Shown here one piece after another: positions 3,844 to 22,046 of a DNA stretch of 22,046 bases (position 1 is the first letter of the stretch; each line of letters starts with the position of its first letter). This stretch comes from Breznakia sp. PF5-3 (GTDB lineage: Bacteria > Bacillota_I > Bacilli_A > Erysipelotrichales > Erysipelotrichaceae): assembly GCF_029504745.1 (NCBI RefSeq), contig NZ_JAQFIQ010000039.1, positions 1 to 22,046 on the forward strand. The letters are read 5' to 3'. The notes below the pieces were generated by a model. That model was not told the DNA's origin and searched no databases. It worked only from the letters and a program-made list of their open reading frames with translations. The translations under genes were made by a program, and so were the position numbers.

Positions 3844-3851
3844 TTTGAACT

Positions 3852-6352: not shown

Positions 6353-6438
6353 TAAATTATCCTTTCCTTTGCTACTTAGTATTATCTGTATCATTTTGTT
6401 TCTATTCAAAGCTTGTTTTAATTACAAAATAAAAAATA

Positions 6439-6882
6439 TCATTCACATATAAAATCTGCTTTTGTTTTTAATTGTTTTTTCAATTTCGAATAACTAACAT
6501 TATCCTTATTCTCTATTTCTAGAGAAGTTAATCTAGTAAATTCTTCTATATTTTTTATTTTATTAAAATCAATGTTTATAGTTGCATATAATTTGAACTC
6601 TACAATTTCTGCTTGTGAATCTACTCCATCACTTTCAAATGAATATGATTTTAAAACATTCTTTATTATCCTTTTTTTCTCATCATCAGATAGTTTGTTA
6701 TCTTCACTAAATATTCGTCTTTCCATTTTCCAATTTAAATTAATAACCTCTTCATTTTTAATAGTAAATATAACTTCATCCTTCATTTTATTATTACTAT
6801 ATGTACAAGTCTTTTTTTCAATATCATGAGTACATCCACAACATACAATAATCAAGATAACTAAAATGCTTTTTTTAATCAT
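6439..6882 (-). CDS. Lipoprotein
   Basis: The internal ATG at 6882 follows GGAGGGG. MIKKSILVILIIVCCGCTHD is a signal peptide with a Cys lipobox. Confidence 0.7.
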   Translation of the reverse strand: MIKKSILVILIIVCCGCTHDIEKKTCTYSNNKMKDEVIFTIKNEEVINLNWKMERRIFSEDNKLSDDEKKRIIKNVLKSYSFESDGVDSQAEIVEFKLYATINIDFNKIKNIEEFTRLTSLEIENKDNVSYSKLKKQLKTKADFICE

Positions 6883-7020
6883 TTTCCCCTCCATTGATTT
6901 TTTCTAGTCATAATACTTTTGCAGTATTAAATGTATTACATACTCCAGTTTCTTAATAAACCATCTATCTTATTTTCTTAGCTGAATTACTGAATTAACT
7001 TTTTTGAAATTCTAACTATT

Positions 7021-7384
7021 CTATATCATTACAATTTCCCATATTTCCTTTTTGATATTTTGTTTCGTATAAATATCTTCTTCTGTCCATTCCCACTCGG
7101 GACTTGGATTATATATAGCACAGCGATAAGATGTTGTATCTCCAATATAACCAAACCATAAAGAATCTACTTTTCCATTTTTCATTATTGCATGCAAACT
7201 ATAATTGTTTTTTCTGAATACTCATAAAAATTCTATCTTTATCTACTATATTTTTAGTATATCCTTCAAAATAACAAGCTGTAAAAGTTTTTTCTTCAAA
7301 ATAGTTATGTAATTTTTCATTCGTAGAGATATTGTTGCACCCTGATAATATTACCATTAACATAATTAGTAATTTTCTTTTCAT
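7021..7384 (-). pseudogene. Lipoprotein gene interrupted by a frameshift at a homopolymer
   Basis: MKRKLLIMLMVILSGCNN is a lipobox signal peptide. The frame stops at 7199. A 54-codon continuation (MKNGKVDSLWFGYIGD...) lies in the +1 frame, and the switch maps to the T6 run at 7208..7213. Confidence 0.5.
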
Positions 7385-7509
7385 TTTTCTCTCTTTCTTC
7401 ACAATCTTCTAAATATTTTCTGTCGTTCCTAAACTGGATTAATCTAAACTCATTTTACCATTAAAAGTTATCCTTTTTAAAATTCTATTTTAGTATTATT
7501 TTACTCCTA

Positions 7510-7950
7510 TTAACTCATAATACACGATATCAATGCGAATAAAACTATTGATACGATTACTATAATTGGATACGTATAATGTAACCACGCTTGCTTTCTA
7601 TAGCTCTTTAAATATTCTTCTCCTTTTAATGTGATTCTTAGACTGACATCTATATTTTCACTATATATTTTTTTTAGAACTAAGGTGTAATTGGTTCCTG
7701 AAAAAGCATCAAATAACACTGATTTATAATAATTAACACTTACTTCTTCATATATATCCTCACACTCATCAAAAGCAATCAGCCCCCTATGAAGACAATG
7801 CCCTAAATCTAGCAAAGTATCTGTTTTGCTAAATTTATCAATTTCATCAATAAAATTTTTGAGCAATATTTTTTCATTTCTTACGTTACTGATATGAATG
7901 AGTATATTCTTAATACTTTTGGGATATGTTCTATATCTTATTGATGGCAT
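7510..7950 (-). CDS. Tail-anchored membrane protein of unknown function
   Basis: This is a 146-aa ORF with an AGGAG SD. The C-terminal hydrophobic stretch is YPIIVIVSIVLFALISCIMS. Confidence 0.65.
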   Translation of the reverse strand: MPSIRYRTYPKSIKNILIHISNVRNEKILLKNFIDEIDKFSKTDTLLDLGHCLHRGLIAFDECEDIYEEVSVNYYKSVLFDAFSGTNYTLVLKKIYSENIDVSLRITLKGEEYLKSYRKQAWLHYTYPIIVIVSIVLFALISCIMS

Positions 7951-7963
7951 ATATTATGATCTC

Positions 7964-8308
7964 CTAAAATTCATTTACATTTTCAAAATACTCAAGCTCT
8001 GGATTTATGATTGCTAAAAACTCTACAATTGCATTATTTTTCCCTGATTCAAATCCTATCTTTTGAATATATTCTTGTTTTTCAGTATTCATTTTCGAAG
8101 AAAAATTGACTACTTCTTTACAGTATTTATTTAAAAAGTCTTTTTCATCCATTACACTTATATCAATATATATTTTATTATAGGAATCTAGTTTCCCACA
8201 ATTGTATTCATATAAATCATCCTCAATATTTTGTGTTAGCTTTTTAAAATATTCTAATCGCAGTTCAACTACTTCTTTTAATGTGATTTTACCAATATTA
8301 TTTTTCAT
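7964..8308 (-). CDS. Hypothetical small protein (immunity-type candidate)
   Basis: The track ORF starts at a TTG (8326). The ATG at 8308 follows GGAGAG by about 10 nt. Confidence 0.6.
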   Translation of the reverse strand: MKNNIGKITLKEVVELRLEYFKKLTQNIEDDLYEYNCGKLDSYNKIYIDISVMDEKDFLNKYCKEVVNFSSKMNTEKQEYIQKIGFESGKNNAIVEFLAIINPELEYFENVNEF

Positions 8309-8479
8309 ATTTAATATTCTCTCCAAAATAAATCTTCATTTCTATTCACAAATTTTTGAATTTATCTTTTATACTAAATTCGTTGTTTTTTAAGTGCCAA
8401 TATTATGAGCAGTTACATCCAAGCTAATATAGCTAATTCTTTTTTATAAATCATTACGCACTTCTTCATAAATTTTAGT

Positions 8480-9187
8480 TTAACATTTAGTTAGTTTATT
8501 TAATTGATTTGTATACTTTGTTAATTCTTTATAGAAAAAATCAAAAGCTGGCATTTCTGTTGGCTCAATGAAACTTATTATTTTGTCCCATCTTTTATCT
8601 TTGTAGTTATGCTTGTCATTCAAAAATTTCTCAAATGATCCGACTACATAACAAGAGTCTGTATTTTCATAGATTTCTATTTCACTGAGAATATACCCTG
8701 TCAAAAACCAACTTAATCCTGTAAGTGATTTTTCACCTAAATACATACCTGGTCTTTCTTTTATCTTTTTTAATAAATCTACTAATCTATTTAAATCCAC
8801 TTTGTTAGATTTGTTAGGAAACACAAGTACATATGCTGCATTATCTTTTATAGATTGTACATATGATTCTAAAGACTGATTTAAAACTATATCAATGGCT
8901 TCATAAAAATTATGGAATGCATTTTCAGTGTTCTCTGTAAAAAAGTTTATAATACTATACATACTTACAGTCATGTTTATATGATAAGAATTACGTATAT
9001 AAGAATCCAATCTATTAAAAAATAGATTCTTTGAGAATGGATCAACAGGAATATATCCTGCTTCTATTTGGCTATAATTATAACCAGAGAGATATGCAGA
9101 TATATATTTTATATTATAATCAAATGCTGAATAATAGTTGTTTTTGATTTCTAACAGTTTAATCAATTTTTTATTTTCTGTGTTCAT
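8480..9187 (-). CDS. Two-repeat protein containing a KERPGMYLG motif
   Basis: This is a 235-aa ORF with SD AAAGGGA. Its two halves share the pattern L..I.....Y.........(Y/F)L(S/T)GY. The second half has RPGMYLG at 8735..8755. Confidence 0.7.
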   Translation of the reverse strand: MNTENKKLIKLLEIKNNYYSAFDYNIKYISAYLSGYNYSQIEAGYIPVDPFSKNLFFNRLDSYIRNSYHINMTVSMYSIINFFTENTENAFHNFYEAIDIVLNQSLESYVQSIKDNAAYVLVFPNKSNKVDLNRLVDLLKKIKERPGMYLGEKSLTGLSWFLTGYILSEIEIYENTDSCYVVGSFEKFLNDKHNYKDKRWDKIISFIEPTEMPAFDFFYKELTKYTNQLNKLTKC

Positions 9188-9235
9188 ATTATGTTCCCTT
9201 TCTATACATATACATTAGTAATTTCGATCAAAAAA

Positions 9236-9469
9236 TTAGTACTCCATACATTTTGGTCTATTCTCAAATTTTATTTCATCATATGTTGAAGTATCACTTG
9301 CTTTATTAACTATAGCTTCATTAATTCTTGTATATATTATTGACTTATTCCATTCCAATTCATTTTCAATTCCTTCGTCTACTATATCAATCTTTGCTAA
9401 CAAACCAAGCATCATAATTTCATTGCTTTCATTAAATTGGATTTTAATAGATATTGAGTTAATTTTCAT
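9236..9469 (-). CDS. Hypothetical 77-aa protein
   Basis: This track ORF starts 5 nt after the stop of the upstream gene and has a weak SD. Confidence 0.45.
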   Translation of the reverse strand: MKINSISIKIQFNESNEIMMLGLLAKIDIVDEGIENELEWNKSIIYTRINEAIVNKASDTSTYDEIKFENRPKCMEY

Positions 9470-9474
9470 TATAT

Positions 9475-9991
9475 CTACATCTGTAAAATAAGACTCTCTA
9501 AAAAAACTTCATTATTTATTTTTGATGGATCAATACTAATGTTAATTATACCCATACTATTTTCAATTTCTTCATAACTTATATTTAAAATTTGATTTTC
9601 ATCTAAATTTAAAAACAAATCTTCATAATCAAGATTAGTTTGACTATAATTAAACTTAACCTTGTAATTACCTTCAATTAAATAAATATTACCTTCTTGA
9701 TAATTAAAATCACATACGCTATCTTCAACCGCTATTTTTCCATTACTAATTGTTAGTTCAGAATCTTTTTTTTCAAAATCCGCAACCATTGACTTTGTAA
9801 TTCCTTCGCCTTTATTTGTATATTTAAAAAGATCAGACATCACAACATTAAAAGTAAGACTCTTTTTATGTTGCTCAACTAAATCAGAATATTTGATATA
9901 TAAATCCTTTTCATTATATTGCTCGTCAGATGTACTTTTAGTACACCCTATAAGCAATATAGCTAAAATCAATATGCTTACTTTTTTTCAT
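9475..9991 (-). pseudogene. Lipoprotein gene with a frameshift in its signal-peptide codons
   Basis: GGAGGAGAAC precedes the ATG at 9991. If the A-run (plus-strand T7 at 9982..9988) were one base shorter, the frame would read MKKVSILILAILLIGCTKS and join the 165-aa track ORF. Confidence 0.6.
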
Positions 9992-10128
9992 GTTCTCCTC
10001 CTTAAATTAATTATTACATTCGGCTATAACATTGCTATTTAATCCTGCTACCTGTATAACAGTATTTTTCTACTATCGATAATCCATAAACATCTCTCTT
10101 ATCTCAACATGTATATCGGTTATTGCTA

Positions 10129-10386
10129 CTATATATCACTCTTTATTTGTATTATTTCTTCCGCAACAGATAAAACTTTTCTCTCATCTATCTTGTATAG
10201 CGAAATTCCAAAATATTTGATGAATACTTCACCAATATATTGTGCGAGTTTAATTGAATCAACTCTTTTATTGAGTATTAGCCATTCTACTATTTTTTCT
10301 ATTTCTGGTTCATATTCATCCTCTAAAAGAGGCTGTATTTCAATTGGATTCCAATTATTTATTATTTGTGTAATTTGATTTTTCAT
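10129..10386 (-). CDS. DUF1871-like small protein
   Basis: SD AGGAGG lies 5 nt before the ATG. The pattern IINNWNPIEI....EDEYEPEIEKIV resembles DUF1871 from memory. Confidence 0.6.
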   Translation of the reverse strand: MKNQITQIINNWNPIEIQPLLEDEYEPEIEKIVEWLILNKRVDSIKLAQYIGEVFIKYFGISLYKIDERKVLSVAEEIIQIKSDI

Positions 10387-10718
10387 ACATCCTCCTTTTA
10401 TCTGCGTATATGCTGATTTTCTAACTATAATTCAGCCTAATATCTTCTTCCCAAATATCCTGTAATAAATCATTTTCAGTCATGTCATTATTCTTTTACT
10501 TACCTAATGGAATATAAAGTCTTCTAAGTCTACAGTAACTTTTAAATTATAATCACATCTTAAATCCTATATATTCAACTTCATCTTAAGCACGAAGTTG
10601 CGTGCCAATCACTTGTGTTTGTTTTTCTTTTTAAACTCTAATTTAGACGAAATACACCATAATTCTTCCTTAACATTATGTGTCAATTTGCTCTATCCTT
10701 ACGCTTAATTTCTTACTG

Positions 10719-11175
10719 TTAATTATCAGACTCACAAGTGAATCCAGATTTTTTTAAAGAATCAATAAACTCTTTTTCATTTTCCAAATTTCCAGTGGAA
10801 ATAATCAATGAATAATGTCGTGTTTGAAACGGATTATAATCTTTAGATATTTCAAAATCGTATGAAATAATAAGTTTATAATCCTCTTCTTGTTCTATAA
10901 ACTCTATCGTTTGTCCTTTTTGACTTTCATAGTTTTTGATATCTTCATTCATTTCTTCAAGAAATTTGCTTTTTTCTACCGCAACCTTATCATAAGGTTG
11001 TCTCCATGTTTCAATCATCTTACTTAGTTTTGAATTTTTATATGTTAAATTCAAACTAATTTCTGCTATATCATTGCTTTGTGAACATACATAATTGATT
11101 TCTGATTTTTCCCATATTTTTTTTATCGTTACAGCCACTAATAATAAGCATAAATATTATTATATATTTTTTCAT
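10719..11175 (-). pseudogene. Lipoprotein gene with a frameshift at an A8 run
   Basis: The ATG at 11175 gives MKKYIIIFMLIISGCNDKK (lipobox ISGC). This frame dies shortly after the run at 11117..11124. One base fewer would join it to the 139-aa track ORF (..IWEKSEINYV). Confidence 0.6.
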
Positions 11176-11391
11176 TTTATCCCTTTCTTATTTATAATCT
11201 AAAAATCCATTACTTTTAGTATATCATGCTATATAATTAACTGCCTTAGTTGGATTATACATTTTTGTTATTTATTCAGTTGATTATCATCATACGTATA
11301 CACTTTCATTATTTCCATCTTCTTTTACCTTATTCTTTCAATTTTCGTTTTCATTAAGTAGAATGGTTGATATTTAAAAAAAGAATTTTGG

Positions 11392-11892
11392 TTATTCTAA
11401 TTTCAATAATTCTTCTTTAAATTCTGTATCTTTCTTCATTTTTATATACCATAAAGTAGTTTTTCCATACATTGAAGTATCTACCGTTTTTTGCTTTAAA
11501 TGTATGTGATCTCCTTGGTAATTTACTGATACTTCCCCTAAATATAATCCAAATTCATATTCATAACGATCATGTGTTATGATTCCAGTATGCATATTTT
11601 TTTCTTCAGAAACAATTGGTGCATAACTTGAATAAATAATTCCCTTACTATCGTACAATGCAAAAATTGATAGGCTTTCATTTTTTTTCTGAACTATTTC
11701 TAAGTAAAAATTATTATCCGTCATAGAATCTATCATTTTATTATATTCAACATCATCAAAATCTCTCGTTAATTCATTAAATTCTGTTTCTACATATTGA
11801 CTAAGCCCCTGACTTTCATCATTAGATGTAGTAAAAATAGATACGATAATTAACAATAAAACTATTACAATAAATCTCTTCTTTAATTGCAT
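11392..11892 (-). CDS. Secreted or signal-anchored protein
   Basis: SD AGGAAGGA is present. The N-terminus MQLKKRFIVIVLLLIIVSIFTTSND is hydrophobic and has no lipobox Cys. Confidence 0.7.
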   Translation of the reverse strand: MQLKKRFIVIVLLLIIVSIFTTSNDESQGLSQYVETEFNELTRDFDDVEYNKMIDSMTDNNFYLEIVQKKNESLSIFALYDSKGIIYSSYAPIVSEEKNMHTGIITHDRYEYEFGLYLGEVSVNYQGDHIHLKQKTVDTSMYGKTTLWYIKMKKDTEFKEELLKLE

Positions 11893-11933
11893 ATTAATAT
11901 TTCCTTCCTATACAAAACTATATTTTTCTACTC

Positions 11934-12197
11934 TTACAATTTAGAGTTTTGCTGTATATTCCCTTTCACGTATCTTTCAAGATCACTTTTTATAATAGAA
12001 GAGTCTACTAGCATAATTTCTTCTTTTTTTACAGGAAAAACCTTACCAGTTGGATAAGCATCATTTTGAATAAATTCTATTTCAAAATTATCTTCATCAT
12101 ATATTTCTACTATTATTCCAAATGTTCCTTTTAGTACACCGATTGGTACATATTTATTTGTAATCAGTTGAATTGTATCATATAGCTTATATTTCAT
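11934..12197 (-). CDS. DUF4926-like small protein
   Basis: SD AAAGGAAG is present. The pattern KLYDTIQL....GVLKGTFGIIVEIYDEDNFEIEF resembles DUF4926 from memory. It lies directly 3' of a relic junction box. Confidence 0.6.
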   Translation of the reverse strand: MKYKLYDTIQLITNKYVPIGVLKGTFGIIVEIYDEDNFEIEFIQNDAYPTGKVFPVKKEEIMLVDSSIIKSDLERYVKGNIQQNSKL

Positions 12198-12220
12198 TTT
12201 CTATCTTCCTTTCTAAAATA

Positions 12221-12240
12221 TCTACCCAGTCCAAGACAAC
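12221..12240 (-). repeat. Relic junction box with no toxin module behind it
   Basis: The minus strand reads AAATTAAGTTGTCTTGGACTGGGTAGATA. The 15138 copy has AAATTATTTTGTCTTGGATAGGGTTCGGATA. This relic runs straight into the SD of 11934..12197. Confidence 0.5.
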
Positions 12241-12247
12241 TTAATTT

Positions 12248-12592
12248 CTAATTATCAATCCACTTTTCCCTTGAAATCATTTGGCTTTCTTTATTTTTCA
12301 TTTGTTTTAATTTTTTGATTGCTAACTCTTTAATTTCATCAATTATTTCATTTAACTTATGAGGAATTAAGGATTCGTAATCTTCTAATTCCAACCCCAT
12401 ACTTATCAACTCTATAATATCTCTATCAATATCTAATTTTTTCAAAATAGAAATACTGTAGGGTGTAAATAAAGCAACTTCAGCATCTGTTATTGTAATG
12501 CACTCATGGCTCAAGGATTCCATGAGTCCAATAATATTAATTAATAAAAATTGTTGCACATCATTATATTCTTCTAAACTTATTTTTAACAT
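12248..12592 (-). CDS. Candidate immunity protein for orphan toxin 12628..12918
   Basis: This is a 114-aa ORF with SD AAGGAGG 5 nt before the ATG, 35 nt after the toxin stop. Confidence 0.65.
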   Translation of the reverse strand: MLKISLEEYNDVQQFLLINIIGLMESLSHECITITDAEVALFTPYSISILKKLDIDRDIIELISMGLELEDYESLIPHKLNEIIDEIKELAIKKLKQMKNKESQMISREKWIDN

Positions 12593-12627
12593 TGTTCCTC
12601 CTTATGGATTACTCCAAAAATATCCTC

Positions 12628-12918
12628 TTATTTTAAAATCAAAATTATTCCAGACCCACTTTGAAAATAGTGAAGTGTTATTTTTTCGTCAGATAAAGTA
12701 TATCCATCTTTATACACTTTATAGCGCTCCCCAGATTCTATTTGTCTCAAATAATTTAGTAGCTCTTTGTTATTAATTGTATTTTTGGTAGTTCCACTTT
12801 GTCTGTTTTGAAATCCTTCTGGATAATTTGGTGCATCCTTAATTGATTTATCTGTTTTCTTATTCGAATCCTGATCCAAATTATATATTTTAAATGGACT
12901 ATTGTTTTGTAACTCCTT
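12628..12918 (-). CDS. Orphan toxin C-terminal module (KVYKDGY...HYFQSGSG type), no ATG
   Basis: The frame is open from 12918, and the track calls it from a TTG inside the junction box (12879). The sequence PNYPEGF...ERYKVYKDGYTLSDEKITLHYFQSGSG resembles the C-terminal ends of Firmicute polymorphic toxins as I recall them. Confidence 0.55.
   Translation of the reverse strand, partial: KELQNNSPFKIYNLDQDSNKKTDKSIKDAPNYPEGFQNRQSGTTKNTINNKELLNYLRQIESGERYKVYKDGYTLSDEKITLHYFQSGSGIILILK
12859..12879 (-). repeat. Junction box, in-frame variant with one extra base
   Basis: The minus strand reads TTGGATCAGGATTCGAATAAG, translated as L-D-Q-D-S-N-K. Confidence 0.7.
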
Positions 12919-12954: not shown

Positions 12955-13371
12955 CTATGAATTATACACATACATATCAAAATCAAAATCCGCCTGAACT
13001 TCATTGGCAAAAGATATAACTCTTTTTGATAAATATATTGATGGGTTTTGCTCATCCCATGTTTCAACAGCTATGATAAAATTACATTCTACATTTAATT
13101 CCTTTTTAAGTTCATTTATGATAACCGTCTTACTTTCAATCTTATTTATTATTTTCGTTATTTCCTCACCAATATCTAGTGTTTCTATAAACTCTCCTCC
13201 TAGAATCCAAGCACTACACTTTCTTTTTGCGTTTCGATTTTCAATAAAATCTCCTGTCTTCCATATTTTATCGGGTACTAGATTTAATTTATCACTAATT
13301 AACTGAGGATCAAATTTATCTCCACGAATTTCGAATTTAATCCTTGCATTTGTTTTTTTTAAATATTCCAT
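12955..13371 (-). CDS. DUF4279-like protein
   Basis: SD GGAGG is present. The patterns IKFEIRGDKFDPQLISDKLNLVP and ADFDFDMYVY fit the DUF4279 pattern from memory. Confidence 0.7.
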   Translation of the reverse strand: MEYLKKTNARIKFEIRGDKFDPQLISDKLNLVPDKIWKTGDFIENRNAKRKCSAWILGGEFIETLDIGEEITKIINKIESKTVIINELKKELNVECNFIIAVETWDEQNPSIYLSKRVISFANEVQADFDFDMYVYNS

Positions 13372-13465: not shown

Positions 13466-13601
13466 TAATTGAGCATCAAATTTATCCTTATAAATATTAT
13501 ATTTTGATATCTCTTTCTTTACGTAATCTGCTTTAAATTAATGTGAATCATATCATTACCCTTTAAGTATTTGTCACTTATTTATTTTTGATTTTTTGGT
13601 C

Positions 13602-13624
13602 CATTATCCCAACCCTATCTAAAA
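13602..13624 (-). repeat. Junction box (variant)
   Basis: The minus strand reads TTTTAGATAGGGTTGGGATAATG, followed only by decayed sequence. Confidence 0.7.
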
Positions 13625-13638
13625 ATCATCATTATTAA

Positions 13639-14124
13639 TTATATTATCGTATAGCCTATCGGTTGATCAAACTTTTCCAACTCCTCTGAAATCCATAATG
13701 CTTCATCCTCTCTTACCTTATGAAAACGTAATGTTGTGTATGGCGGCTCACAACTTATAATAAAACAAAATTCTGATTTCATATCAATTTTTTTTAACTT
13801 TAAACTCCAATTATCTATTAATAATAGAGCAATTTCTAATGATTCATCTACAGTAATATCATTTTCAATATAATCATTTACCCTTATCTCATTATTATTT
13901 GCTTCAAAACCTGTTTTGTCATTATAAATTTTTAATAATCTATTAAAATCATCAATGCTTAAATTAATATTTTGATTTTTAAAAACTATACAACCATATA
14001 TGTTTTCAAATCTGGGATTAAATAATTTTTTAAGATTATCCATTTTCATATTAATCAAATAAGCATCCTCAACCTTATGATTTATGTTAGCTAATATACT
14101 TCTAAATTTTTTATTACTTTTCAT
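13639..14124 (-). CDS. Candidate immunity protein
   Basis: The track ORF starts at a GTG (14133). The ATG at 14124 follows AAAGGTGA by 6 nt, and the SD overlaps the stop of the toxin fragment. Confidence 0.65.
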   Translation of the reverse strand: MKSNKKFRSILANINHKVEDAYLINMKMDNLKKLFNPRFENIYGCIVFKNQNINLSIDDFNRLLKIYNDKTGFEANNNEIRVNDYIENDITVDESLEIALLLIDNWSLKLKKIDMKSEFCFIISCEPPYTTLRFHKVREDEALWISEELEKFDQPIGYTII

Positions 14125-14135
14125 TTTATTCACCT

Positions 14136-14264
14136 TTAATATCCTAAATATTTTAATCCTTTTTCAATTGCATTTTTAATCCATGATTCTGTTAATAATT
14201 TATTGATTTTGGGAAGAGTTCTAATAAAGGTACTATTTTCACCTATTTTCTTATCCGACCCTGT
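14136..14264 (-). pseudogene. Short orphan toxin-CT fragment (42 codons) behind a junction box
   Basis: The frame TGSDKKIGENSTFIRTLPKINKLLTESWIKNAIEKGLKYLGY opens inside the box. It has no start codon and stops 11 nt before the immunity ATG. Confidence 0.4.
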
Positions 14265-14269
14265 CTAAA
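14250..14269 (-). repeat. Junction box (variant)
   Basis: The minus strand reads TTTAGACAGGGTCGGATAAG. Confidence 0.75.
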
Positions 14270-14288
14270 TAAACTTAATATTAAAAAT

Positions 14289-14314
14289 AAACATCTCATT
14301 GTAACAAAGTGTTC
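14289..14314 (-). repeat. Conserved post-immunity hairpin element (weakest copy)
   Basis: The minus strand reads GAACACTTtgttacaatGAGATGTTT followed by ATTTTT. It is homologous in sequence to the other two copies, but its stem is imperfect. Confidence 0.4.
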
Positions 14315-14337
14315 ATTTTTAGTTGTTTCACTATTTA

Positions 14338-14895
14338 TTACCAGTTTATTGTATCACTCCAAAATTTTATATGTTCAATTTTTTCAAATTTAATTCCGTT
14401 ATATTCTTTTATTCCAAATTCAATTTCTAAATATTGAAACAAATTTTTTCCATAGTAGATAATGTCTAAACCCATTATTGAAAAAATTGGAGGAGTTCCG
14501 TTTGTTACTGGAATGTATCTATGTATGTAGACTGGAATCAACTTAGGAGCTTCTTTAAGAAGCAATTCAATTTTTTTCTTCAATTCTTGATCAGTTTCAG
14601 GCCGTATTCCCCAGCCTTTTGGCCAATAATCAATTTCATCGCAATAGTTTATTATATCAATGAATGGAATATTCATTTTTTCTTTTATACGGTTAATATT
14701 TTCAGGTGTTAGATCTCTCCAATTGTAAAATCCTTTACTAACAGGGAGTCCTATTTTTAAAAATTCTATATATTCAATAGGAAAGGTAATATTATAAATC
14801 TTCTCAATTTCAATAATTTCTTGATTAGATAATCCTTTTTCAAATGCAACCCCCTTTTTAACCAGCTCTTTTTTTAACAATTTTAAATTTTGCAT
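14338..14895 (-). CDS. SUKH / SMI1-KNR4-like immunity protein
   Basis: SD GAGGTGA is present. LSNQEIIEIEKIYNITFPIEYIEFLK fits the SMI1/KNR4 N-terminal pattern from memory. Confidence 0.7.
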   Translation of the reverse strand: MQNLKLLKKELVKKGVAFEKGLSNQEIIEIEKIYNITFPIEYIEFLKIGLPVSKGFYNWRDLTPENINRIKEKMNIPFIDIINYCDEIDYWPKGWGIRPETDQELKKKIELLLKEAPKLIPVYIHRYIPVTNGTPPIFSIMGLDIIYYGKNLFQYLEIEFGIKEYNGIKFEKIEHIKFWSDTINW

Positions 14896-14950
14896 TTCTC
14901 ACCTCTGTCTATTTTATTCTAATAAATGTTCTGTAATGATCTGGTGTATA

Positions 14951-15149
14951 CTAAATCGAACCATCACCGCTCATAACCTCTTTTTCTAAGCCTATCTCTG
15001 CATTAGAATCGCTTGGATATAAATCATATTCTTTGTAATACCATTTGGAAATATCTATCTCTTTTTTGAAAAGTTTTATTGCCTTTATACCCATCTGATG
15101 GATTTCTATTTCTATTGCGGATTTTATCATTCAGTTTCTTATCCGAACC
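14951..15149 (-). pseudogene. Orphan toxin-CT module, frameshifted
   Basis: The box frame gives GSDKKLNDKIRNRNRNPSDGYKGNKTFQK, which then runs out of frame. The continuation EIDISKWYYKEYDLYPSDSNAEIGLEKEVMSGDGSI lies in another frame, and the switch maps to T6 at 15062..15067. Confidence 0.45.
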
Positions 15150-15158
15150 CTATCCAAG
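15138..15158 (-). repeat. Junction box
   Basis: The minus strand reads CTTGGATAGGGTTCGGATAAG. Confidence 0.85.
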
Positions 15159-15174
15159 ACAAAATAATTTATAT

Positions 15175-15683
15175 CTACATTATATCGACAAACAAACCTA
15201 ATTCTTCAATTTTTTTTATGCTATCCTTTTTTAAATAATTGCATACACAATACATATAATAATCATAGCCAAATTGAATTTTAAATTTCTTATCAATATC
15301 TACAAGTTCACACCATATTGATTCTCGCAAAATTAGAGTAGCAAATATCAGTGCTTCGTCTAAATCTAAAATCATTTCATTTTTTGCATCTATAAATATT
15401 TTTTTTGCTTTCAAATAAGGCATATCAAATAAATTTTTCTCAATTTCTTCAAAAGAAACATATTTCTCCATTTTTTTACAACAATATTCTTACAATTAAA
15501 GGTTTTAAAAATAATATTAATTGAATCCAAATAATTTTTTTCCATTCCTAAATATGTATCTAAACTTAATTTAGTTCCATTGAAAACTTTTCCAATCTCT
15601 CCTACCGAAATCCAATCATCTACAGTATATGCCCCGTTATCAGCTCTATACTCAGGATTATATTTTGTTATTCTAAATCTCAT
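15175..15683 (-). pseudogene. Candidate immunity gene split by a frameshift (track ORFs 15411..15716 and 15175..15471)
   Basis: The ATG at 15683 follows AAAGGA. MRFRITKYNPEYRADNGAYTVDDW is a family I have seen in Bacillus-type genomes. The two overlapping ORFs join as ..NIVVKKMEKYVSF if the run at 15471..15477 gains one base. Confidence 0.6.
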
Positions 15684-15705
15684 TTTGTTATCCTTTCTTT
15701 TATCA

Positions 15706-15941
15706 TTATGGCGCAATCCAATTTAAAAACTCATCATAGGTTCCCATCCTAGTATTTACACTTCCTAAAACCTTGATGGAACTTGCCATTTCCATGTTCC
15801 ACCACTATGTATATCTGCATCTGGGTTTATATACTTATTTCCTTTTTTGAATATTTTTTGACCATAAGAATATTGATTCGTATCCTTATATTCAAGTTTT
15901 TCTGTTGCTTCTTTATTGGTCATTAACTTCTTATCCGAACA
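15706..15941 (-). pseudogene. Orphan toxin-CT module (HSGGTWK...RMGTYDEFL type), frameshifted
   Basis: The frame opens in the box (CSDKKL) and has an ATG at 15923. It reads ..NPDADIHSGGTWKW and then stops at 15765. ASSIKVLGSVNTRMGTYDEFLNWIAP continues in another frame to 15706, and the switch maps to the AAA at 15789..15791. Confidence 0.55.
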
Positions 15942-15950
15942 CTATCCAAG
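15930..15950 (-). repeat. Junction box
   Basis: The minus strand reads CTTGGATAGTGTTCGGATAAG. Confidence 0.85.
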
Positions 15951-15976
15951 AATTTGATTTCATAATATACAAAATT

Positions 15977-16002
15977 AGACACTCCTCTATTGAAAAGTAC
16001 CT
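15977..16002 (-). repeat. Conserved post-immunity hairpin element
   Basis: The minus strand reads AGGTACT-tttcaatagagg-AGTGTCT. The stem holds only if G-U pairs are allowed. It lies 14 nt after the stop of 16016..16354 and 26 nt before the box. Confidence 0.45.
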
Positions 16003-16015
16003 AATTTTTTATAAA

Positions 16016-16354
16016 TTAAATGCCAAAATGAATTATATATTTTTTTTCTTTTATAGCTTCTTCAATCAATTCTATTAGTTTTTTCACTTCACTTTTATTC
16101 TCATCTTTTATTACAACATTTAAGAATTCCAAAAGTGATTTTGGTGGAATAAGTGTTACTCCATAACGTGCCAACCCTTCATTAGGCCTATTTAAGTTAT
16201 GCCAAAACGTTGGTATTTTTTCCAAGTTGGAAACCCATTCATTAACAAAATCATCTGAAATTTTTATAACGTCATAATTTTTTGAACTTTTCATACCATA
16301 ATCAATATTATTTTCGATATTTGCTATAATTGCAAATTTATTGTATGGTCCCAT
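16016..16354 (-). CDS. Candidate immunity protein
   Basis: This is a 112-aa ORF with SD AAGGAG, and its ATG lies 18 nt after the toxin stop. Confidence 0.7.
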   Translation of the reverse strand: MGPYNKFAIIANIENNIDYGMKSSKNYDVIKISDDFVNEWVSNLEKIPTFWHNLNRPNEGLARYGVTLIPPKSLLEFLNVVIKDENKSEVKKLIELIEEAIKEKKYIIHFGI

Positions 16355-16372
16355 AATTTATTGTCTCCTTAC

Positions 16373-16642
16373 TTATTGTGCTCCAAATGATACTATTGAA
16401 CCATCTGGTGCTATATCAATATACTTTCCATTTTTCTTGTATCTAATAACTCCTTCTACAAATCCATCAACTTTTGACTTCGTGGCTCCCTTCAAAATCT
16501 TTGAGAATTCCACTGCTTTATTTAAATAATTTTGCTTACTTGCTGCGTCCACTTCTGCACCATGCTCGGTATAATGGTAATCTAAAGAGGATTGTAAGCT
16601 ATCAAAACTCCCTTTACTCCAATGACTATCCGCAGAATATGA
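16373..16642 (-). CDS. Orphan toxin-CT module (putative RNase-like), no start codon
   Basis: This is an 89-codon open frame: SYSADSHWSKGSFDSLQSSLDYHYTEHGAEVDAASKQNYLNKAVEF...YIDIAPDGSIVSFGAQ. It has no ATG or SD and is out of frame with its junction box. Confidence 0.55.
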   Translation of the reverse strand, partial: SYSADSHWSKGSFDSLQSSLDYHYTEHGAEVDAASKQNYLNKAVEFSKILKGATKSKVDGFVEGVIRYKKNGKYIDIAPDGSIVSFGAQ

Positions 16643-16664
16643 TTATTTTCGAACCTGTCTAAAA
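16643..16664 (-). repeat. Junction box (variant)
   Basis: The minus strand reads TTTTAGACAGGTTCGAAAATAA. Confidence 0.65.
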
Positions 16665-16690
16665 TTTTGGTTTCAAATTATCTAAACATT

Positions 16691-16716
16691 GGACACTCAC
16701 CCATAAAAAGTGTTCC
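16691..16716 (-). repeat. Conserved post-immunity hairpin element (possible weak terminator or RNA stabiliser)
   Basis: The minus strand reads GGAACACT-ttttatgggtg-AGTGTCC. It starts 28 nt after the stop of 16744..17757 and lies 26 nt before the junction box. Confidence 0.5.
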
Positions 16717-16743
16717 ATACTACGTTACTTTACAAGTATAACT

Positions 16744-17757
16744 CTATTTTGTTAAATAATCTTCTATATTAAAACCTTCATCAACTTCAAAATCTTTTTC
16801 TGAATATAATTTTAATTCTTCATTCAATTTATCGATCACGTGATAAATTACATATGCTCTACTTTCTTCCAAATCGAAATCTAAATTCCCATACATATTT
16901 TTTAATCTTTTATAAATTGCTTCTGCTTGTACTGTATTTACACTCTCATATGTTGATGTAGGATGAAAAATATCCTCGATATTATTATTACCTTCTAATA
17001 TTGCTTCCTTATTATCATGTGCATTAATAATTTCTATAAGTTTATCTAATTCTTCTATATAACTATCAAAATCATTGTAAAAAAGCACTCTAAAATACAT
17101 TGGCAAATAATTACTAGCATTTTCATCTAAGTCTATATCGGGATTATCTAAAATATATTCGAAGTTTTTTTGAGGAGAATATAATTTAATCATTGCTTTA
17201 GAATCGACAACCATATTGAATGTTTCCATTTTATCATTAAAATAAATATCTATTGTTACATTTTTTAAATCATATTTCTCTTTATCATTTATAAATGCTT
17301 CATTGATATCGATATCTTCTATTGAAAAACTCTTCAGTTTTACAAAAGTTGTTGAATCATAAATCAAGTTTTCTAAATCATCCAGTGTTACAGTATTAAT
17401 TTCACAAGAATTATTGTTGATTTCACAATAACTAATATCTATTTTATTAATCACTTCGTATTTTTTGCCTTTTAAAACTAGATCAAATGTACACTCTTTA
17501 CTATTATATGGATCATACCAGATATATTTCATATCTAACGCTTTTCCTTCAACTATTAGTTCAGGAGATTCTTTATAAAATCGGTCTATTTCTTTTTTTT
17601 CTGTTTCGCTCACTTTCTCAGTTAACTTTATTTCCGTTAACTGTTCATTTTCAATGATATTTTTTATAAAAACTAAAACTATACATCCTAAAATAAAAAT
17701 TAAGACTATCCCTAAAATAATAAAATCCTTTTTTACTCTACTTTCATGTTTACTCAT
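16744..17757 (-). CDS. N-terminally membrane-anchored protein of unknown function
   Basis: This is a 337-aa ORF with an AGGAG SD. DFIILGIVLIFILGCIVLVFI is a single transmembrane segment. Confidence 0.75.
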   Translation of the reverse strand: MSKHESRVKKDFIILGIVLIFILGCIVLVFIKNIIENEQLTEIKLTEKVSETEKKEIDRFYKESPELIVEGKALDMKYIWYDPYNSKECTFDLVLKGKKYEVINKIDISYCEINNNSCEINTVTLDDLENLIYDSTTFVKLKSFSIEDIDINEAFINDKEKYDLKNVTIDIYFNDKMETFNMVVDSKAMIKLYSPQKNFEYILDNPDIDLDENASNYLPMYFRVLFYNDFDSYIEELDKLIEIINAHDNKEAILEGNNNIEDIFHPTSTYESVNTVQAEAIYKRLKNMYGNLDFDLEESRAYVIYHVIDKLNEELKLYSEKDFEVDEGFNIEDYLTK

Positions 17758-17985
17758 TTTTTCTCCTATTTTAGATTATGTATATTTCTATTTCATTCCA
17801 CTTGTATCTTTTTTAATTCCATTATACAACAATATAACATAAAATTAATCTGATCGTTTTCTATAATTAATAAATTCTATCAACCATTAAAAAGCTCTTA
17901 AACAATTTTAAAAATAATACGTTAGTATAGATTCAAAATTTAGGTTAAGCAAATCTAGAATAGCCTATTTTTTATTTCTTGATTT

Positions 17986-18365
17986 CTAGCTGATTGGTTT
18001 TATATTTCCTTTATCCCATTCTTTAAGAAACATTTCTGCATTAAATCTAAATAGAGGATGATACTCATCATTATTTTTTACTTCCTCTAATTTTTCTCTT
18101 GCTAACTTAGAAGAAATATTGAGTTTAAGCATTTGTGCACTACATGTTATCAATGTACTTGGACTTATTGTTGTATTAAGAATTTCGTTATAAAAGATTT
18201 CTCTATCCTTTAGACTACTTTTTTTGCTATTTCAAATATTTTTTCTAATTTTTTAAATGCTTTATTACTACTTTTACTATCACCACTTAAAGTTGATTTA
18301 TCTTTACATTCTCCAAGACTTAAAAAAACATTTAAATAATCATATAATTTTTTTTCATTTTCCAT
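17986..18365 (-). pseudogene. DUF2019-like immunity gene, frameshifted
   Basis: GGAGACAAT precedes the ATG at 18365. MENEKKLYDYLNVFLSLGE...IAKK then stops. SSLKDREIFYNEIL...AREKLEEV...FNAEMFLKEWDKGNI continues in another frame. The switch maps to T7 at 18219..18225. Confidence 0.55.
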
Positions 18366-18456
18366 ATTGTCTCCTATAATTTAAACATTACAGTATAATT
18401 CCATATTTTTAAAATATCTGTCCCGTATTGATATCTTGCTCTAAAAAACACCATTT

Positions 18457-19410
18457 TTATCCATCCTCCGACAAACTTATATATCTACAAATTTCTACAT
18501 CATTATTATTTTCAAAAATCACCATATTTGTTTCTCTAATAAAATCCATATTGTTTATTGGAATCCTCCCTTTATAGGTGTCAACAATATCAAGCGTATC
18601 AGGATTAATAATATTTATTTTACCAAGTACCTCATATTTATCAATAACCTTAAAATTATTCAATGATATAATTTTTATTTCCCCATCTATCTCATACATT
18701 AAATAATTACTTTTTTCATTTATTACAAAATCAATTGGCGTTGTTCTATCTATTGTTTTATCAAAATAAACTATTTTCATATTTTTTTTAATTGATACAT
18801 GTTTTTTCCCAGAAATAACTAGATATTTCAAAGACTTGTAATACTTGAAAATGTCATCATTAGAACTAAAAACATCTAATTCTACTAAATCATTTTGTGC
18901 CAAATAAAATGATTTAGTCATAAATTTTTTTGACTTCATTGGCAATTCAGTTGTTACAATAAAATAAGTCTTTTCCGTATTCAATCTACTGATTACATGT
19001 AGTTTTGAATCAAGTGATTGTTCCATAATTTTTTCTTCATCGCAGTTCCATTGTATTAATTTATTTTTATGCTTTTCCCCCTCAAAATAAGAAAATTGAA
19101 GATACATTTTATTTGATACCATTGTTATAACATCCATTGTTATGCTATCTTCCATTAATTCTAATACTTTTTCTACAGAATCATTAATAAAATCTATTTT
19201 TAATACATAATGATTATTGAAAAATACAAATAAACAATTATCATCTTCAGAAAAACACCCAGCAGAAGGGTAATCTATTCTTAATTCATATATTTTTTCA
19301 TTGCTTGAATTATAAACCCTTACATACTTGGCAACATAAAGGGCGTATAACCCTTTACTATATGATGTTGCCAATAAAGAAGTCCTCCTATATTTTTTAA
19401 TAAGCTTCAT
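18457..19410 (-). CDS. Beta-rich repeat protein, paralog of 1444..2385
   Basis: The second ATG (19410) is 8 nt from AGGAG. The 250 nt at the 5' end differ from the paralog at only about 8 positions by eye. Confidence 0.75.
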   Translation of the reverse strand: MKLIKKYRRTSLLATSYSKGLYALYVAKYVRVYNSSNEKIYELRIDYPSAGCFSEDDNCLFVFFNNHYVLKIDFINDSVEKVLELMEDSITMDVITMVSNKMYLQFSYFEGEKHKNKLIQWNCDEEKIMEQSLDSKLHVISRLNTEKTYFIVTTELPMKSKKFMTKSFYLAQNDLVELDVFSSNDDIFKYYKSLKYLVISGKKHVSIKKNMKIVYFDKTIDRTTPIDFVINEKSNYLMYEIDGEIKIISLNNFKVIDKYEVLGKINIINPDTLDIVDTYKGRIPINNMDFIRETNMVIFENNNDVEICRYISLSEDG

Positions 19411-19455
19411 TTGCATTCTCCTTCACTACCTTTATTTTTTTATTAGTTCCAAACT

Positions 19456-19597
19456 TTATTCCTTAATAGTTTGTAAATCTATCATATATCTTTCTGAATC
19501 TAAAAATTCTACTTCATAAATAAAATAACCTCGTCTGTATATACAATGACTCCTTCCATATTCCTTTTAATTTTACCATGAATATCTTTAGTTACTA
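19456..19597 (-). pseudogene. Decayed toxin-CT remnant behind a junction box
   Basis: No frame stays open across this region. The pieces KVVTKDIHGKIKRNMEGVIVYTDEVILFMK and RGYFIYEVEFLDSERYMIDLQTIKE lie in different frames. Confidence 0.3.
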
Positions 19598-19619
19598 CTT
19601 TCCGAACTCTATCCAAAAA
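19598..19619 (-). repeat. Junction box
   Basis: The minus strand reads TTTTTGGATAGAGTTCGGAAAG. Confidence 0.75.
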
Positions 19620-19708
19620 GTTCACCATCAATTATATAAAAAGAATCAATTCTTAGCTTCAATAATGAGCTAGAACTGAGGCTTTCTTCAATGCTTTAAT
19701 AACTGTAA

Positions 19709-20089
19709 TTAGTAATCAGTTGGATAGGCCTTAATTTTTAAGATTTTGATTTGAATAATACTGTTGATAGGAAATGCTTTCCCCTCAGTAATAAAAGTAA
19801 TAATACTGTTATTTAAACGTAGTACAGTAAATCCATCACTATCAGTTTCTTCTAATTTGCCTTGAATTACAATATCATCTTGTATTTGTCTAATCTGAAG
19901 CGTATTGTTTGTTGCTAATGATATATCTGTATTCCAAGTTAGATTTTTATCAATGTCTAATTCAACATCTACTTCTGCACCAATTACTGGTAACTCACCA
20001 TCCCAAATGACATTGAATTCTCCATACTTTGATTTAACCCGTATATTTCTTTTTTGTTTATTATTATATGATAAAATTTTTAACTCCAT
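19709..20089 (-). CDS. Candidate immunity protein
   Basis: The track ORF is over-extended. The ATG at 20089 (MELKILSYNN) follows TAAGGAG, and that SD overlaps the toxin stop at 20100. Confidence 0.7.
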   Translation of the reverse strand: MELKILSYNNKQKRNIRVKSKYGEFNVIWDGELPVIGAEVDVELDIDKNLTWNTDISLATNNTLQIRQIQDDIVIQGKLEETDSDGFTVLRLNNSIITFITEGKAFPINSIIQIKILKIKAYPTDY

Positions 20090-20099
20090 TTGTTTCTCC

Positions 20100-20426
20100 T
20101 TATGGTATGATTCTTTGTAATATATTGGACACATTCATAACATCATTTACAGAGTCATAGGTCCATGTTTCAAAGTGAAAGTGACCTTTTGGAGTACCCA
20201 TGCTTCCCATTTCATGATTTCCAAATCGAATACTTCTTGTTCCATCTGCAGAGAATATTCGATTATTATCAACAAGTCCAGTTCGTGGATTTATATTAGT
20301 TTGGTTTTTACCTAAATAATTATCCCATGAATTTACAACATCGGATGATTTCATTGCATTTGGTGCTTTAGTTTCAGGTAATGTATTAACTTTCGTATTA
20401 GCACTTGGTTGATGATTCCCCGAACC
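20100..20426 (-). CDS. Orphan toxin-CT module with a His-rich metal-site-like motif
   Basis: The frame opens in the box (GSGNHQPSANTKV...), and the track ORF starts at an internal ATG (20354) with no SD. The motif is SIRFGNHEMGSMGTPKGHFHFETW. Confidence 0.6.
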   Translation of the reverse strand, partial: GSGNHQPSANTKVNTLPETKAPNAMKSSDVVNSWDNYLGKNQTNINPRTGLVDNNRIFSADGTRSIRFGNHEMGSMGTPKGHFHFETWTYDSVNDVMNVSNILQRIIP

Positions 20427-20437
20427 CTATCCAAAAA
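20414..20437 (-). repeat. Junction box
   Basis: The minus strand reads TTTTTGGATAGGGTTCGGGGAATC. Confidence 0.8.
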
Positions 20438-20771: not shown

Positions 20772-21137
20772 TTACTCCCTTGGTGGATTTTTTGTCCAAT
20801 CCAAATAATGTTCATGTGGAAATATATGGTTATTGTTAGGATCATTATGTTTAAAATCAATATCTTTAATTACATTTCCATTCTCATCATAAAATCTTCG
20901 TTGTAGTAATTCCTTAGTATTTTTATCATAAAGGTCTGTACTTGAATTAGGTTCCCCTTTCGTATCCAAATTATCATGTGAATCCCCATATTTATCAGTG
21001 TGATTATTCATTTTATCTGTTTGCTTTTTCCAATCAGCATTCGAACCCTTATTCTTGTTTTTAGAATTTTCTGAATCACTTGATGTTGTAGAGTTAGAAT
21101 TCAACTGTGTATTTGTCTTATTCTTGCGCCTTCTTAA
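20772..21137 (-). CDS. Orphan toxin-CT module retaining about 30 codons of low-complexity linker
   Basis: The frame is open from 21137, and the track uses a TTG at 21104. It reads NSNSTTSSDSENSKNKNK-GSNADW..., then RRFYDENGNVIKDIDFKHNDPNNNHIFPHEHYLDW. The junction box is read in frame at 21038..21057. Confidence 0.6.
   Translation of the reverse strand, partial: LRRRKNKTNTQLNSNSTTSSDSENSKNKNKGSNADWKKQTDKMNNHTDKYGDSHDNLDTKGEPNSSTDLYDKNTKELLQRRFYDENGNVIKDIDFKHNDPNNNHIFPHEHYLDWTKNPPRE
21038..21057 (-). repeat. Junction box, in-frame variant
   Basis: The minus strand reads CAAGAATAAGGGTTCGAATG. This is read as N-K-G-S-N inside the open frame of 20772..21137. Confidence 0.55.
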
Positions 21138-21241: not shown

Positions 21242-21898
21242 CTATTTAAATGGATATTTCATTTTTTTAATATTTTCGTCAATATTGGATTTAAGAAAAT
21301 CCATACAAGCTCTTTCGTCATGAAATACCATTTTAGGTATTTCACTTAATTCTTTTCTATTTAGATCAATAAAATAAAAATCTTTTTCATTTTCGTTTAA
21401 AATATCAAAATTTTCTATAGTATAATCATAGTTTTTTTTAGCTTCTCTATAATTTTTGCTATGTAAATTTATAAGGATTTTTATATAGTGTTGGAAAAAC
21501 AAAATTTTATCTTCACTTAATTTTATTATCTCTTTAGAATCTTTAAATTTATTAAATTCTGGAATGATTTTTTCTTTGATAATATTATAAAAATCATCAA
21601 ATGCTTTTTCGCAATCTGCCTCTGTTTCTAATGGCCACCAATGATCTTTTCCATAAACTAATTGTCCAAACCTTCTACTTGTTTCGAATCGAGTTGCTAA
21701 ATATGGTTGATATAATAAAGAAAAACCGTAATTTCCTGTTACCTCTTTTCCATCGCTGAATCGCTGTATATGAATCTCTTCAACAACATCATACTCTGTT
21801 TTTCTCACAAAAAAGGTTGATTTCCATTTTTGAAATCCTAATTCCTTCATCTTTTTCGTAAATACTCGCATCTGCTTATTATATATTTTTGTATCCAT
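21242..21898 (-). CDS. DUF4304-like immunity-type protein, paralog of 4560..5213
   Basis: The ATG at 21898 (MDTKIYNKQMRVF) follows GAGGGGGA. The 22 extra codons in the track ORF have no SD. Confidence 0.7.
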   Translation of the reverse strand: MDTKIYNKQMRVFTKKMKELGFQKWKSTFFVRKTEYDVVEEIHIQRFSDGKEVTGNYGFSLLYQPYLATRFETSRRFGQLVYGKDHWWPLETEADCEKAFDDFYNIIKEKIIPEFNKFKDSKEIIKLSEDKILFFQHYIKILINLHSKNYREAKKNYDYTIENFDILNENEKDFYFIDLNRKELSEIPKMVFHDERACMDFLKSNIDENIKKMKYPFK

Positions 21899-22046
21899 AT
21901 TATTCCCCCTCGTATAATATGTAATGTAATCAAACAGAAGCATCGCCTTCCATATCGATTGCATTTACACTCTAATTAATAGATAATAGATTCGTTTTGA
22001 ATGAAGGTTTTATTTTTCCTCCTTGTGGCTTATAAAGTCCACTTTA

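Follow-up and report, generated by a model that had tools for sequence, protein, structure and literature searches.

What sets the point at which a displaced toxin fragment begins? The question is raised by a stretch of 22,046 nucleotides (nt) from Breznakia sp. PF5-3 (contig NZ_JAQFIQ010000039.1 of assembly GCF_029504745.1; the whole stretch is referred to below as the window), in which a series of orphan toxin modules have as their sole common sequence a short, sharply bounded box, as an earlier note made from the DNA letters alone had observed. The window is an entire 22-kb contig with a GC content of ~25%, and essentially every gene lies on its minus strand. Its toxin and immunity families (Ntox21, SUKH, DUF4279, DUF3969, DUF4926 and DUF4304 in Pfam), together with the remnant of an RNase, identify it as an array of orphan cassettes, each composed of a toxin C-terminal fragment (toxin C-terminus, CT) and then an immunity gene. 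Ntox21, the RNase and three unassigned CTs stand in tandem, followed by SUKH-like, DUF3969 and other small genes. Toxin remnants are confined to ~12.6-21.1 kb; the distal half (positions 1-12,600) has neither box nor toxin remnant and holds only small immunity-like, cysteine-rich or lipoprotein-like genes, most of them without any Pfam family. At its upstream end the array continues beyond the contig. We find that the box is most likely a Breznakia-specific form of a linker-coding junction (...x-G-S-D-K-K) between the constant delivery part of a polymorphic toxin and its exchangeable CT.

A short box at the start of each toxin remnant

The copies of the box are named here 13603, 14250, 15138, 15930, 16643, 19597, 20415, 12859 and 21038, and all lie on the minus strand. 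The consensus, yTTTTGGATAG/GGTTCGGATAAGAAA, is ~25 nt long, the slash marking the boundary between TAG and GGT. The copies are as follows.

20412..20436, minus strand: box, allele A, TTTTGGATAG/GGTTCGGGGAATCAT; TAG at 20427-20429; nhmmer E 2.6e-6, 0/300 shuffles
19594..19618, minus strand: box, allele A, TTTTGGATAG/AGTTCGGAAAGTAGT; TAG at 19609-19611; downstream toxin domain gone, 6 codons open
15927..15951, minus strand: box, allele A, TCTTGGATAG/TGTTCGGATAAGAAG; TAG at 15942-15944
15135..15159, minus strand: box, allele A, closest to consensus, TCTTGGATAG/GGTTCGGATAAGAAA; TAG at 15150-15152
13600..13624, minus strand: box, allele A variant, TTTTAGATAG/GGTTGGGATAATGGA; TAG at 13615-13617; toxin domain gone, 10 codons open
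14247..14271, minus strand: box, allele B, TATTTAGACAGGG-TCGGATAAGAAA; 0/300 shuffles, nhmmer E 0.23
16641..16665, minus strand: box, allele B, more decayed, ATTTTAGACAGGTTCGAAAATAATC; 1/300 shuffles
12856..12880, minus strand: box, allele C, TTTGGATCAGGATTCGAATAAGAAA; one extra C turns TAG into CAG, 16 codons open upstream
21033..21057, minus strand: doubtful copy, only GGTTCGAAT common; between a 30-codon open stub and a toxin domain; 216/300 shuffles

A profile built from the five best copies recovered those five with nhmmer at E-values of 7e-7 to 1.6e-5, found the 14250 box only marginally, and matched nothing in positions 1-12,000, which hold ~20 further genes. We also aligned each copy globally to the consensus TTTTGGATAGGGTTCGGATAAGAAA and compared its score with those of 300 shuffles per copy. 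No shuffle reached the observed score for 13603, 14250, 15138, 15930, 19597, 20415 or 12859, a single one did so for 16643, and 216 scored as well for 21038. Eight of the copies are real by this test, and 21038 is indistinguishable from chance.

In the core copies, alignment columns agree closely only between about -11 and +13 relative to the TAG/GGT boundary and drop to background beyond. All-vs-all blastn and tblastx of the flanks (200 nt upstream, 300 nt downstream) gave nothing better than E 6e-4, so that the box is, as had been claimed, cut off sharply: an island of identity of ~25 nt between unrelated flanks. On its 5' side the box is preceded by a spacer of 14-90 nt that begins after the stop codon of the preceding open reading frame (ORF), also in keeping with the earlier description, and on its 3' side each lies directly against a toxin-domain remnant. 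Outside these strains, scans for the box pattern in GTDB representative genomes, JGI metagenomes and IMG/VR gave only chance-level single matches, in unrelated contigs that are mostly higher in GC.

Two further features that had been suggested for the box found no support. The direct half-sites GGATAG-N5-GGATAAG are exact in 15138 and 15930 only; the second is degenerate in 13603, 19597 and 20415, the variants outside the two exact copies being GGATAAT, GGAAAGT and GGGGAAT, and with up to 3 mismatches allowed the pattern occurs 14 times in the window against 7 expected. Because the second half-site is not conserved, a reading of the box as a two-part protein-binding site is unsupported; nor does the box have dyad symmetry. 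As to the proposed role at the RNA level, folding z-scores range from -1.7 to +0.5, each copy folds differently with no shared or unusually stable structure around the box, and Rfam has 0 matches in the window. The possibility that the box is the 3' fragment of a tRNA, serving as an att site, was also rejected, as the window has no tRNA or tmRNA and the GGTTCG has no flanking T-stem.

Alleles, reading frame and silence of the modules

In the linker frame, the codon directly 5' of GGT/TGT/AGT-TCG is TAG in the five core copies, which are the same five in which it had been noted before (numbered there 15138, 15930, 20414, 19598 and 13602). These boxes, which we call allele A, are copies of one sequence, and this fits the suggestion that they descend from one silenced ancestor. 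A TAG was also said to lie two codons up in 14250 and 16643; it is literally there, but it belongs to a separate allele. Relative to allele A, allele B (TTTAGACAGG) carries G>A, a T>C that makes the allele-A TAG into CAG, and a 1-nt deletion, and its in-frame TAG arises from TT-TAG-AC. Since this TAG has a different origin, the "seven TAGs" amount to two independent alleles, A (n=5) and B (n=2). Of the two copies that were thought to read through by virtue of an extra base, 12859 is a good one, with a single inserted C (TTGGATCAGGATTCG) and 16 sense codons upstream, not 13. The other, 21038, does have the 30-codon open stub described for it, but is the copy at chance level. The earlier observation is largely correct, and the pattern it captured is clearly non-random.

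The GGT TCG frame is the frame of the CT wherever a CT survives: in 20415 it continues through 108 open codons, in 15930 it enters Ntox21, in 12859 it spans 80 codons, and in 15138 it covers the start of the RNase before a frameshift. It follows that the box ends in a linker, G-S-D-K-K(-L/I). The codon after the TAG varies non-synonymously (GGT, TGT, AGT).

Upstream of this linker, a stop codon is found within 0-1 codon in 7 copies. In several copies, 20415 among them, the stretch from the box to the conserved toxin domain lacks an in-frame start codon, and inspection by eye revealed no convincing Shine-Dalgarno motif in the spacers. TAG is an ordinary terminator in Breznakia sp. PF5-3: it ends 13 of the 34 ORFs in the window, among them domain-complete DUF4279 and DUF3969 genes. 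The clearest of several terminator-like hairpins precedes the 15930 box, and weaker ones precede the 14250 and 19597 boxes.

15971..16008, minus strand: terminator-like hairpin with a U-run, lying after the preceding immunity gene and ahead of the 15930 box

With no initiation signals, an in-frame stop, and the end of the previous gene just upstream, the orphan toxin modules are, judged by their sequence, translationally silent.

The box as a probable linker-coding junction

The CT behind the 20415 box gives a view of what such a junction looks like elsewhere. Its large family comprises 281 representatives at E <=1e-3, with members at the C-termini of RHS-repeat, TcB/TcC-like and eCIS_core (DUF4157) proteins. 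Homology between the 20415 CT and these relatives starts ~6 codons past the box, and the family begins with the motif [E/K]-(S)-G-[T/S]-x-K. In the closest relative (P0001 in locus L006, 85% identical), a GAA (Glu) codon aligns with the TAG.

Ten other loci with homologues of the 20415 CT were used for comparison. L006, which also contains homologues of the cassettes, is headed by a 2258-amino-acid (aa) RHS protein, and 117-300 nt repeats precede its orphans. L007, L105 and L108 each have a junction repeat of their own, positioned directly 5' of unrelated CTs.

L007 junction repeat: 42 nt, 3' end ...TGTAGTGAGGGAACGAG, encodes C-S-E-G-T
L105 junction repeat: 57 nt, 3' end ...AAGAGTGGTACTAAG, encodes K-S-G-T-K
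L108 junction repeat: 83 nt, 3' end ...CCTGAGGGCGCGGGGAGTAAG, encodes E-G-A-G-S-K

The junction repeats of these other arrays end in the same [E/K]-(S)-G-[T/S]-x-K motif with which the CT family starts. In L108, an in-frame upstream ORF (...YGDDVIEGAGSK/AVADSRKF...) has only 19 nt, TGAGGGyrCGGGGAGyAAG, in common with two orphans. One CT of this locus is present both fused within that ORF and as an orphan fragment (L108:2-478 vs 3623-3816, 98% over 130 nt), and the homology of the pair starts exactly at the 19-nt junction, which resembles the trace that an exchange or duplication of a cassette at that point would leave. The 19-nt sharing tells us that a very short, sharp junction homology occurs in another such array, where it coincides with an exchange breakpoint.

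We estimate a probability of roughly 50% that the box consists of the linker codons of a polymorphic toxin gene located off the contig, together with the final ~10 nt of its constant region, kept at the 5' edge of each displaced CT/immunity module and serving as a short-homology crossover point. Each module would then retain ~10 nt of constant-region sequence and ~15 nt of linker. As the five allele-A boxes are one sequence placed before unrelated CTs, the crossover point would be the box itself. Anchoring would come from a long homologous stretch of the constant region, and the other crossover would lie within the ~25-nt box, by homology-facilitated or short-homology recombination. The displaced module would inherit an orphan-type box, 5' edge and TAG included; because of this inheritance, we propose that the sharp edge and the TAG propagate themselves, which would make a dedicated recombinase unnecessary. 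In the orphan state, translation of the toxins would be blocked by the TAG, by the terminators upstream and by the lack of initiation signals, and an active fusion would result only from crossovers 3' of the TAG.

Several observations weigh against this proposal. The full-length toxin gene is not seen, the window being the entire contig, and searches for homologues, started from two toxin domains and from the L006 RHS core, brought up no full-length toxin from Breznakia. The ~15 nt available 3' of the TAG are very short for RecA-type exchange. The TAG is present in 5/5 allele-A copies, where scattered crossovers should have left some sense alleles. Boxes 15138 and 15930 are near-perfect despite their decayed toxin domains, which hints at homogenisation or constraint. 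Finally, DNA alignments between the box and the foreign junction repeats are not better than chance, so it is the encoded motif alone that ties the box to those junctions.

The anatomy of the array, its frame relationships, the silence of its modules and the common descent of the allele-A copies are shown by the sequence; that the full-length gene lies off the contig and that recombination takes place at the box is what we infer. The gene could be an Rhs, although the window itself has no RHS repeats and no DPxGL motif, and no scanned ORF in it has an RHS match in Pfam. The locus is best filed as a further orphan toxin/immunity array of a known class, with an unusually short junction. If the box is a junction remnant only, then it adds one more such array, here in insect-gut Erysipelotrichia. 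The junction-remnant reading also implies that ~20-25 nt of linker-coding DNA can be the sole sequence common to an expressed toxin gene and its silent cassettes, and sharing on this scale bears on how toxin repertoires are reshuffled.

Two specific origins for the box were considered. A derivation from the Rhs DPxGL motif (by reading F/L-G-[L>*]) is speculation only, as the box has no DNA similarity to the end of the L006 RHS core; alignments of that core end with the box and with the 12859 stub score no better than shuffles. A derivation by deletion from a stub of the L007/L110 type (...ELYNEDSYCSEGTSK) was rejected, as local alignments of seven foreign stubs with all nine copies are around chance.

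L006 has a further feature of its own, a non-coding direct repeat of ~150 nt in seven copies (at 3795, 5742, 9873, 11004, 12030, 13194 and 14608) that precedes every orphan cassette, each time after a terminator-like hairpin. This repeat matches nothing in Rfam, yields no consensus RNA structure and does not occur in the Breznakia window.

Alternative explanations

It is possible, though rather unlikely, that the box is a pure relic without a present role, a single orphan junction having spread by segmental duplication or gene conversion through a decaying array, with the TAG an accident. The reduction of the TAG to two independent alleles would suit such a history, as would the state of the toxin domains, most of which are pseudogenes or lost, the non-synonymous variation of the post-TAG codon, and the internal duplications of the array (2031-2330/19056-19355 and 4560-5225/21243-21910). 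Duplication would, however, have carried the flanks along, yet these are unrelated, and the presence of five unrelated toxin domains behind the same 25 nt is left unexplained. Gene conversion confined to 25 nt, with unrelated sequence on either side, already amounts to a short-homology exchange, so in that form the relic explanation merges with the junction reading.

An active alternative is that a dedicated site-specific recombination system, encoded elsewhere in the genome, uses the box as its core site, whether that system is integron-like, of the Mollicutes vrs type, or an IS110 system guided by a bridge RNA; cassettes would leave as circles and re-enter at the box that the expressed gene carries. 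We regard this as unlikely. The fixed boundaries of the box on both sides, the direct orientation of all copies, the scarcity of homology 3' of the TAG, and the retention of the box even where toxin domains have decayed are what such a site would lead one to expect, and IS110-family genes do occur near analogous repeats in related loci (see below). Set against this, the window ORFs scanned against Pfam contain no recombinase domain, and tblastn with three IS110 transposases found no IS110 remnant in the window (nothing better than E 0.26). The box lacks dyad symmetry, its direct half-sites are conserved in 2 copies only, and the immunity-only cassettes have no box at all. It is also bound to a reading frame and encodes a linker, as a coding remnant would. 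Moreover, no rearrangement was observed: four Breznakia assemblies appear colinear, as judged by accession numbering, and contigs retrieved from other samples are exact matches to the window.

The lead towards IS110 comes from the related loci, in 4/10 of which IS110-family genes (DEDD_Tnp_IS110 + Transposase_20) end ~25-130 nt upstream of a junction repeat or CT.

L007:8705-9955: IS110-family gene
L105:136-579 and 8085-9314: IS110-family genes
L108:1436-2644: IS110-family gene
L110:1020-4602 and 6493-7960: IS110-family genes

In L105 such a gene stands ahead of both junction copies. The complete transposases of L007, L105 and L108, the three that were compared, are only 45-57% identical to one another. 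IS110 elements may simply target the inter-cassette repeat, in the way that IS1111-attC elements go to the attC sites of integrons, or alternatively they may help to move cassettes. A full-text literature search found no paper linking IS110 to polymorphic toxin cassettes. The adjacency is a lead, not evidence about the Breznakia box. A broader version of the idea is that the Firmicutes junction repeats, the Breznakia box included, are substrates of a dedicated recombinase, maybe of the bridge-RNA-guided IS110 family, which would swap toxin domains into the expressed gene by a programmed, site-specific event and not by homologous recombination. This is decidedly doubtful, but if a recombinase does act on these junctions, they would constitute an integron-like system for toxin domains in Gram-positive bacteria.

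The L110/L111 loci contain two IS110 copies, with group II introns interrupting them. In L110, group II intron RNA domains are found at 1425-1562, 3649-3725 and 7165-7241, with an intron reverse transcriptase, beside toxin cassettes.

A role for the box as a cis-acting expression signal (an operator, an element of the 5' untranslated region, or a site of translational stop and restart) that aids the downstream immunity gene is very improbable. Four copies have a -10-like hexamer 16-17 nt ahead of the box, which is weak evidence in 25%-GC DNA, and 15930 has an in-frame ATG 6 codons after the TAG, with an ATG at a similar distance in 15138 in another frame. Promoter-like sites are not enriched (55 found vs 70 expected), the copies have neither a conserved -35 element nor an RNA structure in common, the next start codon lies at widely differing distances from the box, and the immunity genes of the lower half of the array do without a box. 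A promoter role was rejected on the count of sites.

That the TAG also has a function in the expressed gene, either because the constant gene ends at the box and reaches the CT by read-through or frameshifting or because the TAG is recoded, is scarcely credible: the TAG is invariant in allele A and has length variants around it (+1 in 12859, -1 in 14250 and 16643), but it is a common stop in this array, no slippery heptamer is present, the required -1 shift lands on the TAG itself, and 20415 has no in-frame start before its toxin domain.

Comparison with known systems

Orphan cdiA-CT/cdiI modules of contact-dependent growth inhibition (CDI) systems, located downstream of cdiBAI, resemble the window in their tandem CT/immunity pairs and in the short junction motif at the start of each fragment; some have only the VENN-coding sequence in common with full-length cdiA, and they lack translation initiation signals (Poole et al. 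2011, PMC3150448). Unlike these, the Breznakia array belongs to a Gram-positive host (Erysipelotrichia), has no CdiA or VENN and instead has the junction x-G-S-D-K-K, carries an in-frame TAG directly 5' of that junction in five copies, and is seen without its full-length gene.

A main rhs gene and its orphan have been shown to recombine where they are homologous, by which silent orphan modules can become fused to the main gene (Koskiniemi et al. 2014, PMC3967940). The window is like these loci in its silent orphan CT/immunity modules, and relatives of one of its CTs are RHS C-termini. The RHS repeats of an Rhs toxin, and the PxxxxDPxGL core end that stands immediately before its CT, are absent from the window, and the shared homology is ~25 nt, unlike the ~117-300 nt repeats before the orphans of the RHS-headed L006.

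The recombinase-associated acquired interbacterial defence (rAID-1) clusters of Bacteroidales, which Ross et al. are said to have described in 2019, reportedly consist of long arrays of immunity genes and toxin fragments with repeated intergenic sequences, for which site-specific capture was proposed; a tyrosine recombinase is said to stand at the head of the array, and repeats to flank every cassette. Unlike rAID-1 and integron arrays, the window has no recombinase, has its box only ahead of toxin remnants, and has no attC-like inverted repeats. The arrangement that marks an IS110-family target, a transposase gene abutting the repeat, is found in L007, L105, L108 and L110 and not in the window. 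We know of no short repeated junction box with a stop codon described for the displacement arrays of the Vibrio cholerae type VI secretion system (T6SS). These T6SS effector/immunity arrays grow by displacement that leaves orphan immunity genes behind, according to Kirchberger et al. 2017 (PMC5361080), and to that extent they match the box-free, immunity-only distal half of the window, with a different secretion system and host.

Toxin and immunity cassettes

The 20415 cassette contains an intact toxin domain.

20100..20426, minus strand: intact orphan toxin C-terminal domain, 108 codons from the box, GSGNHQPSANTKV...; uncharacterised family
19709..20134, minus strand: putative immunity gene cognate to the 20415 toxin domain; in L006 a homologue stands after that same domain

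The family shows the pattern PSxNTKV...RIFSADG...HEM...HxHxExW and has no sequence match in Pfam, NCBIfam or PDB. An AlphaFold model of the CT is confident (pLDDT, predicted local distance difference test, 92), and a Foldseek search of the model against the PDB gave no match (best E 0.7); the predicted fold may be undescribed.

Several other cassettes are in decay, and almost nothing remains of the CTs behind 13603, 19597 and 16643. In the cassette of 15930, the gene that follows Ntox21 (15175-15716) is split into overlapping ORFs, 15716-15411 and 15471-15175.

15765..15941, minus strand: Ntox21 toxin domain in frame with the box; covers profile positions 3-44 of 71 only and appears truncated
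14951..15149, minus strand: barnase-type RNase toxin domain, a pseudogene, identified via its L006 homologue, relative to which it has a frameshift and TGG>TAG
14338..14895, minus strand: SUKH-like immunity gene of the RNase cassette; weak SMI1_KNR4 match, under the Pfam cut-off; a 185-aa homologue follows the RNase cassette in L006
12628..12870, minus strand: orphan toxin domain of the 12859 cassette, 80 codons, no family assignment
12248-12592: DUF3969 gene after the 12859 toxin domain (Pfam)
12955-13371: DUF4279 gene (Pfam)
11934-12197: DUF4926 gene (Pfam)
21242-21964: DUF4304 gene, with a paralogue at 4560-5213 (Pfam)

Duplications and related assemblies

Two pairs of genes are duplicated 17 kb apart within the array, namely paralogous immunity-like genes of 313/319 aa (2031-2330 vs 19056-19355) and the DUF4304 paralogues of 217/218 aa (4560-5225 vs 21243-21910). 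Both duplications are 80-92% identical, with homology that ends at the gene borders. By exact-protein look-ups, the contig is identical to JAQFIS010000042.1 of GCA_029504795.1, and three further Breznakia assemblies carry identical proteins; the contig break of one Breznakia assembly falls inside the 2031-2330/19056-19355 repeat. Independent Logan contigs from SRR35245974 and SRR35246390 are exact matches that both end at 9068, within the ORF at 8480-9187, and this shared end may mark a structural variant or a repeat boundary in those samples.

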